A stretch of 36,496 nt of DNA from a virus. The position numbers were made by a program, and so were the translations under genes. Shown here one piece after another: positions 17,445 to 23,038 of this stretch (position 1 is the first letter of the stretch; every line of letters starts with the position of its first letter). Under the pieces are notes generated by a model. It was not told the DNA's origin. It saw only the letters and a list, made by a program, of their open reading frames with translations, and searched no databases. The stretch lies in the IMG/VR virus record IMGVR_UViG_2518645528_000001. The stretch is one strand, 5' to 3'.

Positions 17445-18191
17445 CTATTCTTTTGAAATTATTGGTAACAGTACACAGCGGCACTGTGGATGTACCGGCG
17501 GCACTACGTGATCACTATCCAATCTAAAGACTTTGCCATCAAGAGGCCCGCACACTGGACAGACCCTTTCATCCTGTGCCGTGATAAATTCTGTTTCCTC
17601 GATGTCGTGTTGTTGGTAGCGGATAATCGTTCCCTGCGTAAATGCGTTGATCGTTTCAGTCCTGGCCATTACTGTTGCTCTCTGAATGCCGATATGATCA
17701 ACTCGATCCGTGATCCTGCCTGCCAGCTCAGGAATTCCCTCACCTCTCTGGATGCCTGTCGTGAGCTGCTCGATGATCTGCTTTGACTGCTCGTCTGAGA
17801 TCCCTTTCAGAGCTGAAAGGTTGCGCACACGCAGTGCGTCAATCGCCCGCCAGTCTGCAGGAGTATTCGCGCCAACCGATACTTCGATACCTGCGCGTGT
17901 GAGGCCGAAGCCTGCATAAGTCGTGCCTGACTGGTATGACTTCCGCACGTAATCGTCAGTGATCCGCTTTCCTGGAAGGATGATTATCTCTGTTGCCAGA
18001 TCTCTGAGCCGATCAGCCAGCCAGGGTGTGTTCACGTCTGCTGCCGCCAGCGTCCTACCTTCTGACTGCTTGAGAGCCTCTACAGCTTGTTTTTTGTAGC
18101 TGCGGAATAATCTGCGCAGAGCTACAGCGTAGCTATTTTGTATCGTTCTTGTGTGGGTAGGCTCTTTTCTGGTGTCAGTGCTGAGGCGCAT
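17445..18191 (-). CDS. Minor head protein (SPP1 gp7 / Mu gpF family; start moved to ATG 18191)
   Basis: RATVMARTETINAF...DERVCPVCGPLDGK...PPVHPQCRCVLLP. Confidence 0.9.
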   Translation of the reverse strand: MRLSTDTRKEPTHTRTIQNSYAVALRRLFRSYKKQAVEALKQSEGRTLAAADVNTPWLADRLRDLATEIIILPGKRITDDYVRKSYQSGTTYAGFGLTRAGIEVSVGANTPADWRAIDALRVRNLSALKGISDEQSKQIIEQLTTGIQRGEGIPELAGRITDRVDHIGIQRATVMARTETINAFTQGTIIRYQQHDIEETEFITAQDERVCPVCGPLDGKVFRLDSDHVVPPVHPQCRCVLLPIISKE

Positions 18192-19392
18192 CTGTAATAT
18201 CCCCTGGCATCTGTTCCGGGAACAGATCTTCCTCTTCGTCATCCTCATACTGCCCCGGATCAATGTTCAGTTGCTCCTGCACCCAGCGCCTCGGAAGCAC
18301 GGAAAAAGGATCGATTGGAGTTGAGCGCATGATATTCGCTATCCATTCTGCTTTGAGTTTTTCATCTTCAGGCGTGATATCGTTGAACACAAGACGCACG
18401 GCGCCGGGTTCCTGCGTGTACAGATTGATCACGTTTGAGTATATGCGTTCAAGTCGCTTCTGGTATCTTGCGATTTTCTGGAGATATGATTCTATGCGCT
18501 TGGCTGCTGTTGCGTCAGTTGATCCGCGCCTCAAGCCGAGAAGCTCCTCCGGGACACCCAGAGCAGCGCACGCCCTCATAATGCTGATGTCGTTGTATGT
18601 ATCGATTCCAGTGAGCCCGCCTTCATCTATGTTCTTGATCTCCACGTCCCGGACTGTGACGAAATCGTTCTTGCTTTCGAGATCCTGGAACTGCTTGTCT
18701 ATATTCTGCAGCACGTCCTGCGGTATGATCTCGCCTTCTTTGCCGACACGGATGTGGTACTTCTTGAAGCCGTGCCTTTCTACTGCAGTAGCAGATGCCT
18801 CTGCGGTCTTGGTGTCGCGCATGATATCATCGTATGCCCTGCCGATGAGAGAAAGGCCGTACATGCTGCCACCCAAGGATTTTAGCTGGATGTGTGTGGC
18901 CTGCTCCGGCTTGAGCTCTATGCCCTGATCGAGCATATCTATCTGCTGCATGTAGCCGTTGATCTTGCCATGATCGTCGTGCAGGATCGAGAAGCTCCAT
19001 GATTCCCTTGCCACGATCCTCTCAAGATCGCCGCCGCGCGTGAATACGTTCTCCTGGAAGCCGTCGCCGTACACAAGCGCATCTATGAGGCCCTGCTCCA
19101 TGACGTAATCGAAATCGAAGCCCTCTAACCATTGCCATACATCGTCTGCAAGATTTTCGTCCTCGCCTTCGAGCCGCCAGCCGTTAGCGAATGCAAATAG
19201 GGCGTAAGTGTCTATCGCTTCTGCGAATACGCCGCCCTGTTCATATATCGTGCGGTATTTCTTCAGGTTCTCCTGATTCCGCATTCTCTCTGAGAAATAG
19301 TTGCGCCTGTTGCTGCCGCCTGACGCTATGTATGTCTTTGGCTGCGCTTCATTCTTGAAGGCTTGAAGTGCCTGCTTTAACCGGTTTAACAC
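18175..19392 (-). CDS. Portal protein (405 aa)
   Basis: Position before gp7-like gene; DALVYGDGFQE, SMYGLSLI, CAALGVPEELLG patterns. Confidence 0.85.
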   Translation of the reverse strand: MLNRLKQALQAFKNEAQPKTYIASGGSNRRNYFSERMRNQENLKKYRTIYEQGGVFAEAIDTYALFAFANGWRLEGEDENLADDVWQWLEGFDFDYVMEQGLIDALVYGDGFQENVFTRGGDLERIVARESWSFSILHDDHGKINGYMQQIDMLDQGIELKPEQATHIQLKSLGGSMYGLSLIGRAYDDIMRDTKTAEASATAVERHGFKKYHIRVGKEGEIIPQDVLQNIDKQFQDLESKNDFVTVRDVEIKNIDEGGLTGIDTYNDISIMRACAALGVPEELLGLRRGSTDATAAKRIESYLQKIARYQKRLERIYSNVINLYTQEPGAVRLVFNDITPEDEKLKAEWIANIMRSTPIDPFSVLPRRWVQEQLNIDPGQYEDDEEEDLFPEQMPGDITDAPQH

Positions 19393-19414: not shown

Positions 19415-19436
19415 TAAATAAAGCTGAAAAAAAAGG
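19415..19436 (-). promoter_or_regulatory. Late-promoter motif copy (portal); T-tract doubles as array terminator
   Basis: CCTTTTTTTTCAGCTTTATTTA, 23 nt before ATG 19392. Confidence 0.7.
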
Positions 19437-19458: not shown

Positions 19459-19641
19459 GTTACATCCCTACTTCTGATAAATGTCACTCTTCAACCAGGC
19501 ACGGGCGGGTATCATTTCTCATGCAAAGAACTGTTACATCCCTACTTCTGATAAATGTCACTCTTCAACACCTGTCAATTATATCCATCAAGCAGGGTAT
19601 GAAAGTTACATCCCTACTTCTGATAAATGTCACTCTTCAAC
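19459..19641 (-). CRISPR. Mini-array: 3 identical 37-bp repeats, 2 internal spacers (37 and 35 nt) plus a terminal 24-nt spacer-like segment (19435-19458)
   Basis: Repeat GTTGAAGAGTGACATTTATCAGAAGTAGGGATGTAAC (minus) at 19459-19495, 19533-19569, 19605-19641; 3' end resembles Cas12f/Cas14 repeats. Confidence 0.93.
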
Positions 19642-19723
19642 ACTACCAGCCCGATATCGGTTTTTTAGCCGAAATTCAGGCGTGCTGGCAATTTATTGAA
19701 ATACTTATAAAGACAAGAAAACA
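19642..19723 (-). promoter_or_regulatory. Array promoter and structured leader
   Basis: TTTATAAG box just after the cas stop; CCAGC...GCTGG stem enclosing TCGG...CCGA and CCGATATCGG. Confidence 0.5.
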
Positions 19724-21295
19724 CTATTGCATAGACACAATATTATTTGCCTGATTTATAAGTTGATTAACTTCATATCCGCAGGACTCACATTTAAAGT
19801 TTTTGATACCTTTGATAAGCTGCGTAATCGCCTTCGCGGGTTTTTTCCCGTTCTTTTGCTTCGCACCACATGACGAGCATACAAGATCATTGCATTTGTT
19901 ATATTTGATCTCTACAATCGGTATGCTTACCTGCATCGCTTTGTGCCTTAGGTAGTCCTGCTGCTGAACGACTGGCCACAGGTTCTTCAGGTAATTCAAC
20001 TGCTTACCGAAGTTCTGTGTTATGCCATTGCCAACATCCCATAGCAGTATCTTGGGATTCTCTGACTGTTCCATGATATAATCTACCACCTTCCTTGATA
20101 TCTGGTGATTATACGTGGATACATACCTCTGTTCTACGTTACCTCTTCTCCGTATCTTCTTCCTTCTGCGCCTGATCTTTCTCATTTTTTCATCAGGTGA
20201 CTTTCTTACCGTAATCTCTGCCCGCTTCTCTTTGAAGTGCCTCTTAGAGAACGCAAGCTGACCTGTTGACATCCACTTAACCGAATTAAGCGCACCATCC
20301 TCATCGTATCCAAACACTCCTATCCTGGTTGGCGATGACAGGACAACGAACGGATCACACTCTTCAATAGCAGGGGGCTGCTTGACCTTGATCTCCAGTG
20401 GATACATTAGATAGTAGTCGCCATTCTTTTTTGTGATGTTGCAATATACGTTATTGTCTGCTTCCATCTTCAGGATATACTGCTTAAGATACTCTTTGCC
20501 CCAGAAGTCTATCCTCTTCCTGCCTTTCCCCCATAATGTGAGATAAAGCTCTCCGTTATCCCACTGTACAAACCCGGAAGCCATCATTATGGTTCTGCAC
20601 TCTTCAAGATGCGGAAATGATATTGGTCGTTTCAGCCGCCTCACATCCATGAGTTTATCATGCAGCCTTCTGATCTCTTTCTGTTCTTTGTCTGAGAAAT
20701 CACGGAATACCTCTTTTGTAGCATGTGCCTTTGCGGTTTTCCATATCATCTTTGGGTTACTGCGCTTTGTATCTGCTGCCTTCTGCTCTATCAGCATTGC
20801 AGCGTGCAGGTATCGCTGATCTGGATATGATGATAGCTCTGCTTCAACCACCCCTAACTCTCTGTTGCGCTTGATCCTCCAGGCATTGTATGATTTCCAC
20901 ATTGCGTATGCTTGAGAGAACAGCATCGCGTAATGCGTCTTAACCGGGATTTCTATGACGCTTTTTAAGTCGTTTGCCACTACACGGTCACCTACACCAT
21001 ATATTTCTTTTCGCACAGTGTATTCACTGTACGTTTTCATAGCGCAGGATGAGCAGTATTTTCGATTGGTGTATCGATTAAGAAAGGTTAGATTCTTTTC
21101 TGTATTGCATTCAGGACATACGCCGTCGATACGGTTTTCTTTCGGGATCTCTTCAAACCGTGAAACAAATACTTGATATCGTTTCTCGATTTCGTTCAGT
21201 GACCAGTTAATGCCAGTTCTGAATGCCTCAAAAAGGGTTTTTAGTTCCTGCTCTTGTGGTATTATCAAATTAAGCTTTATGCCTACTGTTTTCAT
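19724..21295 (-). CDS. Cas12f/Cas14 (TnpB-derived) effector, predicted nuclease-dead (523 aa; start moved to ATG 21295)
   Basis: MKTVGIKLNL start, CPEC...CSSC zinc finger, WPVVQQQDYLRHKA helix, CSSCG...FKCESCGY zinc ribbon, terminal N..N.A.NI motif; RuvC acidic residues replaced; adjacent array. Confidence 0.85.
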   Translation of the reverse strand: MKTVGIKLNLIIPQEQELKTLFEAFRTGINWSLNEIEKRYQVFVSRFEEIPKENRIDGVCPECNTEKNLTFLNRYTNRKYCSSCAMKTYSEYTVRKEIYGVGDRVVANDLKSVIEIPVKTHYAMLFSQAYAMWKSYNAWRIKRNRELGVVEAELSSYPDQRYLHAAMLIEQKAADTKRSNPKMIWKTAKAHATKEVFRDFSDKEQKEIRRLHDKLMDVRRLKRPISFPHLEECRTIMMASGFVQWDNGELYLTLWGKGRKRIDFWGKEYLKQYILKMEADNNVYCNITKKNGDYYLMYPLEIKVKQPPAIEECDPFVVLSSPTRIGVFGYDEDGALNSVKWMSTGQLAFSKRHFKEKRAEITVRKSPDEKMRKIRRRRKKIRRRGNVEQRYVSTYNHQISRKVVDYIMEQSENPKILLWDVGNGITQNFGKQLNYLKNLWPVVQQQDYLRHKAMQVSIPIVEIKYNKCNDLVCSSCGAKQKNGKKPAKAITQLIKGIKNFKCESCGYEVNQLINQANNIVSMQ

Positions 21296-21314
21296 CACAT
21301 TTTCCAAAATATCA

Positions 21315-21430
21315 CCTGTATTGAAGTAGGGTTGGCTCTCCGCCAAAATGACGGGAGCCACCTTGCGCGCTGTAACGGGCACGCATTGCACAGCGCATAT
21401 AGCACTATACAATCGCATCTTAGATATGCT
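21315..21430 (-). ncRNA. Putative tracrRNA in the 5' leader of the cas12f-like gene
   Basis: CCCTACTTC (21331-21323) complementary to repeat GAAGTAGGG; GTTACA (21376-21371) complementary to repeat 3' end TGTAAC; several stems; TATA at 21453-21460. Confidence 0.7.
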
Positions 21431-21474
21431 ATCGTTCCTATACATCTCTATAATATATAACACTTTCGATCATA

Positions 21475-21666
21475 TTAGTTCTTGTAGTGGCTCGGGTATT
21501 TCTCTGTGTGGAAGAATAATTGCATCGTTGCTTTCCAGTGACCGTCCTTGATCTCTCGGACATCGAGCAGGTAATCGAACTTGCCCTGCTTCTCTATGCC
21601 GTCTTTGATCGCTTCTGCTTTTTTTTCTACTTCTTTCCGATCTTTTCCTTCTACTACGAATACCAG
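21475..21666 (-). CDS. 63-aa hypothetical protein with CTG start (not in ORF track)
   Basis: AGGAG 8 nt upstream of CTG; MVFVVEGKDRKEVEKKAEAIKDG...PSHYKN* fills gap after terminase. Confidence 0.4.
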   Translation of the reverse strand: MVFVVEGKDRKEVEKKAEAIKDGIEKQGKFDYLLDVREIKDGHWKATMQLFFHTEKYPSHYKN

Positions 21667-21667
21667 G

Positions 21668-23038
21668 CTACCAGCTCCTTTTTGATACCACTATGCTGCT
21701 GAATCGGTTCACGTCGCCGCTGCCTTCGGATGCGGTCACAGCGAAATCAAATGCGTCAAATGTGTCGTCATGCGATGCGTCCGGGAATAAGCAGAGCTCG
21801 TCCACAAATACGGCCATGTCTTTGCGCAGGAATACTTTCTTATTCTCGAATAGTGCGCTGCGCCTCTGCGCTCTTGTCACTTTGTCTTTGACCGTCTGCA
21901 GTTCCTTGATCGGAAGCGTGGTTGTCCTGATCAGTTCCTGCGCAAGAGCTCGCTGGTACTGGTTGATCTCTATTCCGATGCTGACAGGCTGCCACTGCTG
22001 CGCCTTGAGTCTGATGATCTCCTGCTGCGCCTTGAAGCTGAGCCGGTCGCGGTACAGATCCAGGACGTAGATACTGCCGTTAGGATCGATTCCTAGTGTC
22101 ATGAGCGCGAAGTAATCGGCGGTCTCTTTTTCGCTTATTGCGAGATCCACGCCCTGGTATATTTTCAGCTTCTGCGGTGCCCTGTCATGATCATAGAACT
22201 GCATCCACTCAAAGCGGAATATGTGCCCCTGCTTTGCCAGCTCGACATCGTTCTGGTATTGCATTGAGAATATAAGGCTGCCGAGCTCTGCCTTTATCTG
22301 CAGCAGATCCGTGGAAGAAAACTTTGCAGGCCACAGACTGGAGCCGTCGTCCTGGATGGCGCGCTGGATCTGGACGCTGTACTGCTTGCTGTCCATGAGA
22401 TCCTGGTACAGATCCAGCGGATGATAGCGCGTACCTATGACTACAAGCTGGCCGTGCGGTTCCAGGGTTGGAAGTAATGCAGTACGATACCACTCGCTGA
22501 GCTTCCTGCGCTGCAGCTCTGTCCTGGCGTTCTCGAAATCAACGATGTCGTCGGCTATGATAATATCAAAATGCTTGCTGATCACCGCGCCTGACGCACC
22601 TAATGCAGTGAGTGTGCTTTCTTTTGCCACTATGGTCCTGCCTGAAACGGAGAGCTCGCTTTCAGTCCACTTATCGCTTTTGAAAGTCCCGAAGAGCTCA
22701 AGCAGCCGTGAGTTTCCTTCCAGGTGTGCTTTCATTTCTCTCAAAAATGATTCTGCCTGGCTCTGCGTGTTGCTCACAACAAGGATCCTTGTGTTGCGGT
22801 TCTGTACTATCTTCCAGAGGCAATAGCCGATATCTCCTATCGTGGATTTGCCGAAGCCGCGCGGCGCAAGATCGAGCGATTTCTTACTGCAGGTGATATG
22901 CTCAAGGATCTTCCTGTGGTGCTGTTCTACCTGATAGCCCAGAACATTTCCCAGGAAATAATCTTGATCGAGCATGCAGAGCGCTTTAGTAGATAGCAGC
23001 CTGTTTGAGCTTTGATATGATCCTGGCTCTTCCGACAT
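21668..23038 (-). CDS. terL: Terminase large subunit (start uncertain, possibly 22975)
   Basis: Walker A APRGFGKST, Walker B IIIADD, nuclease GVDLA...DY and HDDTFDA. Confidence 0.93.
   Translation of the reverse strand: MSEEPGSYQSSNRLLSTKALCMLDQDYFLGNVLGYQVEQHHRKILEHITCSKKSLDLAPRGFGKSTIGDIGYCLWKIVQNRNTRILVVSNTQSQAESFLREMKAHLEGNSRLLELFGTFKSDKWTESELSVSGRTIVAKESTLTALGASGAVISKHFDIIIADDIVDFENARTELQRRKLSEWYRTALLPTLEPHGQLVVIGTRYHPLDLYQDLMDSKQYSVQIQRAIQDDGSSLWPAKFSSTDLLQIKAELGSLIFSMQYQNDVELAKQGHIFRFEWMQFYDHDRAPQKLKIYQGVDLAISEKETADYFALMTLGIDPNGSIYVLDLYRDRLSFKAQQEIIRLKAQQWQPVSIGIEINQYQRALAQELIRTTTLPIKELQTVKDKVTRAQRRSALFENKKVFLRKDMAVFVDELCLFPDASHDDTFDAFDFAVTASEGSGDVNRFSSIVVSKRSW

Follow-up and report, generated by a model that had tools for sequence, protein, structure and literature searches.

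The provirus locus and its Cas12f-like gene

The window (the whole 36,496-nt stretch of viral DNA that was analysed) is part of a 333-kb contig in a 3.2-Mb genome of 99.8 % completeness, and the SSU rRNA in this genome indicates an archaeal host. When the window was read directly, a CRISPR module was found with its effector and array all on the minus strand, located between the large terminase gene (21668-23038) and the portal gene (18175-19392) of a tailed provirus. The upstream neighbour of the stretch described here is a small ORF with its end at 21476. It is followed by a 180-nt intergenic stretch, the Cas12f-like ORF (to 19724), an array leader of ~80 nt and a mini-array (19641-19459). 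The features are as follows:

21453..21460, minus strand: TATA-box-like element TTATATAT, candidate archaeal promoter of the tracrRNA (core invariant in 8/8 close loci)
21320..21432, minus strand: putative tracrRNA of ~110 nt (5' end predicted near 21430; 3' end undefined, near 21320)
21415..21429, minus strand: H1, small 5' hairpin GCAU/AUGC (4/4 pairs changed on both sides, 12 loci)
21385..21413, minus strand: H2, long stem enclosing GCUAUAUGCG (6/7 consensus pairs changed on both sides)
21365..21384, minus strand: H3, 6-bp hairpin GCGUGC/GCGCGC with the 8-nt loop CCGUUACA (100 % of cells paired; 3 pairs changed on both sides)
21371..21376, minus strand: H3-loop anti-repeat GUUACA (exact complement of repeat nt 32-37, UGUAAC)
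21330..21362, minus strand: H4, long stem-loop including GGCTC/GAGCC (99 % of cells paired; 5 pairs changed on both sides)
21323..21331, minus strand: 3' anti-repeat CCCUACUUC (DNA CCCTACTTC), 9/9 Watson-Crick pairs with repeat nt 22-30 (GAAGUAGGG)
21305..21316, minus strand: Shine-Dalgarno GGTGAT (21316-21311) and probable start codon TTG (21307-21305), from homologue N-termini and locus L011
19724..21307, minus strand: Cas12f2-like effector gene, ~523-527 aa (NCBIfam Cas12f2 profile and AF2 fold)
19642..19723, minus strand: array leader with its own TATA-like box TTTATAAG (~19711-19704) and the motif AAAAA[CT]CGATATCGG (read directly)
19459..19641, minus strand: CRISPR mini-array of three 37-nt repeats and two spacers (read directly)
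19427..19434, minus strand: T8 tract after the last repeat (read directly)

The effector protein matched the NCBIfam Cas12f2 (Cas14b) profile NF049972 end to end (protein 5-519 on model 1-515 of 524; E 3e-36) with 125 bits, below the cut-off of 450, and we read it as a related but separate family, with ~77 homologues of the effector in the database. Its AF2 model (pLDDT 88.5) has the Cas12f fold (WED/REC/RuvC/zinc-ribbon TNB), and the best Foldseek matches, with a probability of 1.0, were AsCas12f, OsCas12f, CnCas12f1 and Un1Cas12f1. The RuvC D-E-D triad is incomplete, as just the first Asp candidate (D314) is kept and conserved. Tryptophan (W419) occupies the position of the catalytic Glu in 50/50 members, and the third Asp position is leucine (L512) in 49/50 and Leu or Ile in 50/50. 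Since two of the three RuvC carboxylates are absent, the complex should bind PAM-flanked DNA and leave it uncut, and the effector itself probably binds DNA without cutting. Some non-canonical activity may come from the conserved RuvC-I Asp candidate D314.

The preliminary description had taken the ATG at 21295 as the true start of this gene. The homologue N-termini and L011 instead favour a TTG located 12 nt upstream. In the homologues, 3-6 residues lie ahead of a V-K-[ST]-I-G motif, and in L011 an in-frame TGA is followed by GGTGAT, 4 nt and a TTG that is the sole possible start. In the window, GGTGAT is followed by ATT and then TTG at 21307, and the ATG at 21295 is 15 nt from the Shine-Dalgarno sequence. 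The start codon is probably TTG 21307, with ATG 21295 and GTG 21298 as alternatives.

Among the 284 genomes of the host's order, the effector family was found in only two, the single further carrier being the one with the same contig as L011, and it was found in none of the 48 other genomes of the host's genus. This rarity fits a mobile, virus-borne origin of the module. The sizes of the host's family and genus, along with the bioreactor and sludge sources of the RNA libraries that contain the stretch, may point to a Methanoperedens-like host.

The array contains three copies of the repeat GTTGAAGAGTGACATTTATCAGAAGTAGGGATGTAAC (19641-19605, 19569-19533 and 19495-19459, minus strand) and two spacers (19604-19570 and 19532-19496, minus strand). 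The same array leader is present in L001, L002 and L009, with a TATA-like box right after the effector stop and AAAAA[CT]CGATATCGG ~10 nt before the first repeat. This box presumably serves as a promoter, and the T8 tract is likely the archaeal terminator of the array transcript. In the case of L002, the array is broken (L002:4435-4600) by ~160 nt that repeat the effector's last codons and part of the array leader (…GTGAATCTGTGAAGGTC…), as if the gene-array junction had been duplicated or recombined internally.

Fold of the leader RNA and its pairing with the repeat

Comparison was made with 12 loci for which DNA was available, out of the ~77 database homologues of the effector, and the putative tracrRNA adjoins the effector in 11 of the 12. 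When RNAalifold was applied to 8 loci, four helices (H1 to H4) were obtained, and the minimum free energy fold of the RNA from the window (-50.5 kcal/mol; z -5.5) is the same as the alignment consensus. A covariance model built from the 8 loci scored this RNA at 89 bits as the sole copy in the genome of the window, and the same model also picked up L005 (52 bits), L006, L003 and L004. In the alignment of 12 RNAs, which was fitted to the covariance model and represents just 12 loci in two clades, 97.4 % of the cells are paired and 18/27 pairs are changed on both sides, whereas slid controls gave 32-48 % paired and 3-5 such pairs. Covariance among homologues, which had been proposed as a check in the preliminary description, supports a tracrRNA.

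H2 is lengthened to 12 bp in the single-sequence fold, at a place where the homologues carry a variable insert. Within H2 (21385-21413, minus strand), GCUAYAUGCG is near-invariant in the 12 RNAs, and the surrounding stem covaries and takes inserts of 0-40 nt; this motif probably contacts a protein or takes part in a tertiary contact. Two stems had been pointed out previously. GGCTC/GAGCC is present and forms part of H4 in the supported fold. The letters of GCGCTGT/ACAGCGC are present as well, but this 7-bp stem was rejected, as it shows no covariation (0 pairs changed on both sides) and 63 % of its cells are paired, the same as in shuffles. In the conserved fold, GUUACA lies in the loop of the 6-bp hairpin GCGUGC/GCGCGC and not in GCGCTGT/ACAGCGC.

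Rfam gave no family match for the RNA, and no paper describing it was found in the literature searched. Scanning of viral contigs with peptide patterns and the 16-mer GTGCCCGTTACAGCGC yielded no true relative; the 70 DNA matches to this 16-mer in viral contigs lack the flanking motifs and were dismissed as chance. A tblastn search against INPHARED phages found nothing.

The combined target of the two anti-repeats is the final 16 nt of the 37-nt repeat, GAAGUAGGG-A-UGUAAC, with which they form perfect duplexes of 9 bp and 6 bp in the window. The partner of GUUACA is the last 6 nt of the repeat, immediately beside the spacer. Both elements are located where the preliminary description placed them (CCCTACTTC at 21331-21323 and GTTACA at 21376-21371, minus strand) and are 39 nt apart. 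When the 3.2-Mb genome was searched on both strands for GTTACA-N25-60-CCCTACTTC, a single occurrence was found against 0.21 expected, and this sole site is the leader described here; the anti-repeat match is therefore more than chance. Both anti-repeats are exposed, as GUUACA lies in the H3 loop and CCCUACUUC in the free single-stranded 3' tail that comes after H4 in the minimum free energy fold of this RNA. The proposal of two separate anti-repeats of the Cas12f1 type is borne out in that the fold supported by covariation places GUUACA in the loop of H3 and has CCCUACUUC follow H4.

Both anti-repeats change together with the repeat of their own locus in 8/8 loci having a visible repeat. In the H3 loop, the anti-repeat/repeat pairs across loci are GUUACA/UGUAAC, GUUGCA/UGCAAC and GUUGAAG/CUUCAAC. 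The window and L012 have a repeat end ...GUAGGG-A-UGUAAC and the anti-repeats GUUACA plus CCCUAC or CCUUAC, the tail pair of L012 being CCUUACAU/AUGUAGGG. L002 and L009 have a repeat end ...ACGUGG-A-UGCAAC and the anti-repeats GUUGCA plus CCACGUUCU, with the tail pair CCACGUUCU/AGAACGUGG. L003 and L004, which represent a clade of 38 % identity, have a repeat ending in ...CUUCAAC, to which GUUGAAG of the H3 loop corresponds; the second anti-repeat of these loci, CGAAAGUCC, pairs elsewhere, with repeat nt 10-18 or 10-19. Thus the architecture is not uniform, as the second anti-repeat of L003 and L004 meets another part of the repeat.

Complementarity to the own repeat is kept in the window, L002, L009, L012, L003 and L004 despite differing repeats, and the pairing in trans holds with the array upstream or on the opposite strand (L012, L003 and L004). 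When all duplexes were compared in a cross matrix, the cognate ones were the most stable (-15 to -17 kcal/mol for the 3' anti-repeat versus -5 to -8 kcal/mol for non-cognate duplexes), so that RNA pairing with the repeat, another check suggested earlier, also came out in favour. In addition, a repeat 3' end GTAGGG-N-TGTAAC was predicted from the anti-repeats and afterwards found in two loci: it forms the first repeat past the effector gene of L001 and an upstream solo repeat in L011.

The solo repeat of L011 (Methanosarcinaceae-binned) is 5'-truncated (…CCGTAGGGATGTAAC) and located upstream of the tracrRNA (L011:164-230). The 'guide' after it and the gene just downstream of the effector (L011:2380-2393) are identical over 14 nt, GATGGATTATGAAA; an estimated ~4e-4 such identities are expected by chance in that locus, and a T-rich PAM is absent. 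This may be a short guide with a regulatory role.

Judged from sequence comparison, the tracrRNA of this virus-borne, type V-F-like CRISPR module is very likely encoded at 21432-21320 (minus strand).

Transcription of the RNA and the effector gene

In 8/8 loci, the first paired base of H1 comes 21-23 nt after the 3' end of the TATA-like element, and we infer that the element acts as a promoter with a start near 21430. None of 8 loci has five or more consecutive T between the 3' anti-repeat and the start codon, which extends to the homologues the earlier and correct remark that no T-tract separates 21323 from the GGTGAT Shine-Dalgarno (21316-21311). No second TATA box was found at a usable distance between the tracrRNA and the effector start in the 8 loci, and the distance from the 3' anti-repeat to the Shine-Dalgarno sequence is just 7-27 nt in the homologues. 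With a conserved TATA box ahead of H1 and neither a promoter nor a T-tract behind the RNA, co-transcription is likely, and we lean towards a single transcript carrying both the putative tracrRNA and the effector mRNA.

The stretch is present in six RNA libraries (bioreactor and sludge sources), and assembled contigs from four of these cover it. In three studies, metatranscriptome contigs run continuously across TerL, the tracrRNA and the effector gene, although these are assembled contigs and possibly DNA carry-over. The RNA contigs show neither ends nor strand and break at repeats, and no 5' end or junction molecule is readable from them. Their ends at 19612/19614 and ~24262 were considered as transcript ends and rejected, since they coincide with the CRISPR repeats and the iteron region and represent assembly breaks.

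Alternatively, the tracrRNA would be a stand-alone small-RNA gene ending at an A/U-rich stretch past the 3' anti-repeat, and the effector would be on a different transcript, such as read-through from the upstream terminase operon. Transcription termination in archaea occurs at U-rich tracts, and the sequences after the anti-repeat in the homologues (UUUAUAAUAAU, AUUAUUU, UCUAUAAU) are indeed A/U-rich and could be a weak archaeal terminator. However, the corresponding sequence in the window is AAUACA, and none of the 8 loci has the T run mentioned above. RNA contigs that span the terminase gene through the effector gene are also in line with this alternative, but the anti-repeat stays within a short distance of the Shine-Dalgarno sequence and no second TATA box fits between them. 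A further point in its favour is L006, where the tracrRNA and the effector are 1.4 kb apart with an IS605/TnpB element in between, so a single transcript is not obligatory; yet the IS was inserted secondarily, and a duplicated 3' part of the tracrRNA stayed beside the effector. Taken with the points on both sides, we consider a stand-alone gene possible but rather doubtful.

The insertion in L006 (L006:1019-2500) is an IS605-type TnpB gene of 380 aa (OrfB_IS605 plus TNB). The tracrRNA 3' part (…ACTGTTCAGTCGAAAC…GACTGCTTCC) is found on both sides of it, and a second TnpB fragment lies further upstream.

According to the favoured single-transcript reading, transcription would begin ~23 nt past the conserved TATA box, near 21430, and, with no promoter or terminator after the tracrRNA, would read through into the effector ORF, so that the tracrRNA would form the 5' leader of the mRNA. 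It would then be freed or trimmed by an RNase, or would end at a leaky U/A-rich stretch. A more elaborate scheme joins this to the target of the array: the tracrRNA would be made solely as the mRNA leader, each transcript would deliver one scaffold and one message, scaffold cleavage or effector binding would set the amount of protein, and the dead Cas12f of this self-contained module would silence the replicase of a co-resident provirus without cutting the host chromosome that both share. We regard this combination as speculative and unlikely in its entirety.

Identity, known relatives and predicted target

The position of the conserved leader, directly 5' of the ribosome-binding site, would also suit a purely cis-acting regulator of the effector mRNA (e.g. 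a translational operator) with no crRNA pairing. However, both single-stranded segments covary with the repeat in 8 loci, even where the arrays are upstream or on the other strand, and this argues against such a regulator because a purely cis element has no reason to covary. There is also no conserved repeat mimic downstream, as the duplexes of the anti-repeats with downstream sequence were no better than shuffles in 7/8 loci (z ~0). We consider a solely cis-acting role highly improbable.

Translation of the stretch as a 56-aa N-terminal extension of the effector (GTG 21463 ORF), to which the frame open from 21463 in this genome and a 564-aa database call would point, has a negligible chance of being correct, as the equivalent stretch has in-frame stops in all homologues, V-K-[ST]-I-G-I-K-L begins 3-6 residues past a start codon preceded by a Shine-Dalgarno sequence, and substitutions keep base pairs rather than codons. 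A conserved block is present there in 11/11 loci with upstream DNA, in-frame stops run across the block in all of them, and its conservation follows base pairs, not codons. The preliminary description had named the 56-aa extension as the finding that would speak against it; with stops in every homologue, its view of the region as an untranslated part of the effector 5' leader holds.

The database gene call for this effector (window 19724-21463, minus strand) is 564 aa compared to ~525 aa, and several homologues were called at 540-615 aa. These calls indicate that automatic annotation wrongly adds the tracrRNA to the N-terminal end of the protein, which is of practical importance wherever gene callers are applied to such loci.

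The RNA has several properties that mark a tracrRNA of the Cas12f1 type. An anti-repeat is complementary to the CRISPR repeat of the same locus; two separate anti-repeat:repeat duplexes are formed, by a hairpin loop beside the guide and by the 3' end, with a long stem between them; and the RNA is non-coding and encoded inside the CRISPR-cas locus. The putative tracrRNA should bind the effector together with the crRNA and serve targeting.

The tracrRNA of Un1Cas12f1 consists of Stems 1-4 and makes two anti-repeat:repeat duplexes, one of which, made by the loop of the 5-bp Stem 3, positions the guide, the other being formed by the 9-nt 3' end after the long Stem 4 (PMC8053092). Each of H1-H4, as well as the GUUACA loop and the 9-nt tail, has its counterpart in Un1Cas12f1 (Cas14a1; V-F1), with H3 matching Stem 3 and H4 matching Stem 4 (PMC8053092). 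The two systems also share the type of repeat 3' end (...AUGUAAC) and have the spacer directly after the duplex made by the H3 or Stem 3 loop. They differ in that the RNA described here is ~110 nt rather than 140 nt and has no detectable sequence similarity, and in that two RuvC carboxylates are absent from its partner protein. The putative tracrRNA of Cas14-family loci is located between the nuclease gene and the array (PMC7229846). Here, in contrast, it is upstream of the effector, in the leader directly 5' of the ribosome-binding site.

In OMEGA systems, the omega-RNA of IscB is located 5' of iscB, and the omega-RNA/reRNA of TnpB comes from the 3' end of the tnpB mRNA. The present locus is similar in that the scaffold RNA and the effector ORF are on the same strand with no terminator between them, and one transcript could supply both. 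In OMEGA RNAs, the guide is covalently attached and a CRISPR array is not required, whereas the guide here is supplied by a separate array that has a TATA box of its own, and it would pair in trans. With this separate spacer array, and with no repeat-plus-guide in cis after the scaffold, the RNA is not a single guide of the OMEGA type.

Inactivated relatives are also known. The published dCas12f proteins are bacterial and C-terminally truncated. Those of the dCas12f-sigmaE activators use single guide RNAs, no tracrRNA having been found for them, and a CRISPR-linked dCas12f cluster with predicted repressor targets was briefly mentioned in the same study (PMC13472631). The dCas12f proteins, the TldR repressors and the present family are alike in having a Cas12f/TnpB fold, an inactivated RuvC and, as predicted for the present family, a DNA-binding use. 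Unlike the dCas12f proteins, the present family keeps the full C-terminal zinc ribbon, shows point substitutions (E to W and D to L) together with a predicted tracrRNA, and is encoded between the terminase and portal genes of an archaeal tailed provirus. Methanoperedens extrachromosomal elements were reported to have TnpB/Cas12f-like genes next to CRISPR arrays, and these elements resemble the present case as Methanosarcinales mobile elements with a miniature Cas12-like gene, an array and spacers against mobile elements of the same host (10.1101/2023.08.02.551345). The protein of those elements, however, has conserved cleavage residues, the array is large and diverse, and no tracrRNA was described (10.1101/2023.08.02.551345).

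We conclude from the comparative sequence evidence that the predicted RNA is a real tracrRNA with an architecture of the Cas12f1 type. It occupies an unusual leader position, proximal to the promoter, and belongs to a nuclease-dead Cas12f2-like family of archaeal proviruses. The best explanation for the locus as a whole, in which we have good confidence, is a tracrRNA in the effector leader that is probably co-transcribed with the effector and would guide a probably non-cutting Cas12f2-like protein. This amounts to a complete predicted guide for an uncharacterised, virus-borne, nuclease-dead Cas12f-like family with ~77 database members. With the tracrRNA sequence, fold and both docking sites defined, an sgRNA can be designed (tracrRNA 3' end + GAAGUAGGGAUGUAAC + spacer 2). 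The double anti-repeat architecture of the Cas12f1 type extends to a Cas12f2-like lineage, and the scaffold gene can shift from its usual site after the effector gene to the effector 5' leader, which recalls the shared transcript of OMEGA systems.

In the proposed mechanism, the array transcript made from its own TATA box would pair with the tracrRNA, and the duplex would load the Cas12f2-like protein. Docking of the H3 loop and the 3' tail on the last 16 nt of the repeat would leave the spacer directly after the duplex with UGUAAC. The complex would then bind TTTA-flanked DNA without cutting, and spacer 2 would aim it at the replicase gene of a second provirus on the same chromosome.

Spacer 2 has a 37/37 match in the same genome (G000:C1:493596-493632; L090:4097-4133) with a 5' TTTA, inside a 951-aa ORF that has no Pfam, NCBIfam or PHROG match. 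This ORF resembles viral primase/helicase replicases (Atlas score 0.97, to be read as a lead), and it is regarded as part of a second provirus since its neighbours are a tyrosine integrase and split terminase ORFs. The crRNA of spacer 2 would pair with the coding strand of the target gene. In the case of spacer 1 and the pseudo-spacer after the last repeat, no convincing target was found in the genome, the best match being 19 nt with 1 mismatch and PAM-distal. A dead effector would let a chromosomal target be bound without killing the host. The perfect, PAM-flanked match to the replicase of the other provirus represents a testable case of conflict between viruses in archaea that would involve DNA binding without cleavage. 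The flanks of the spacer 2 target were also found in 4/4 of the RNA runs examined.
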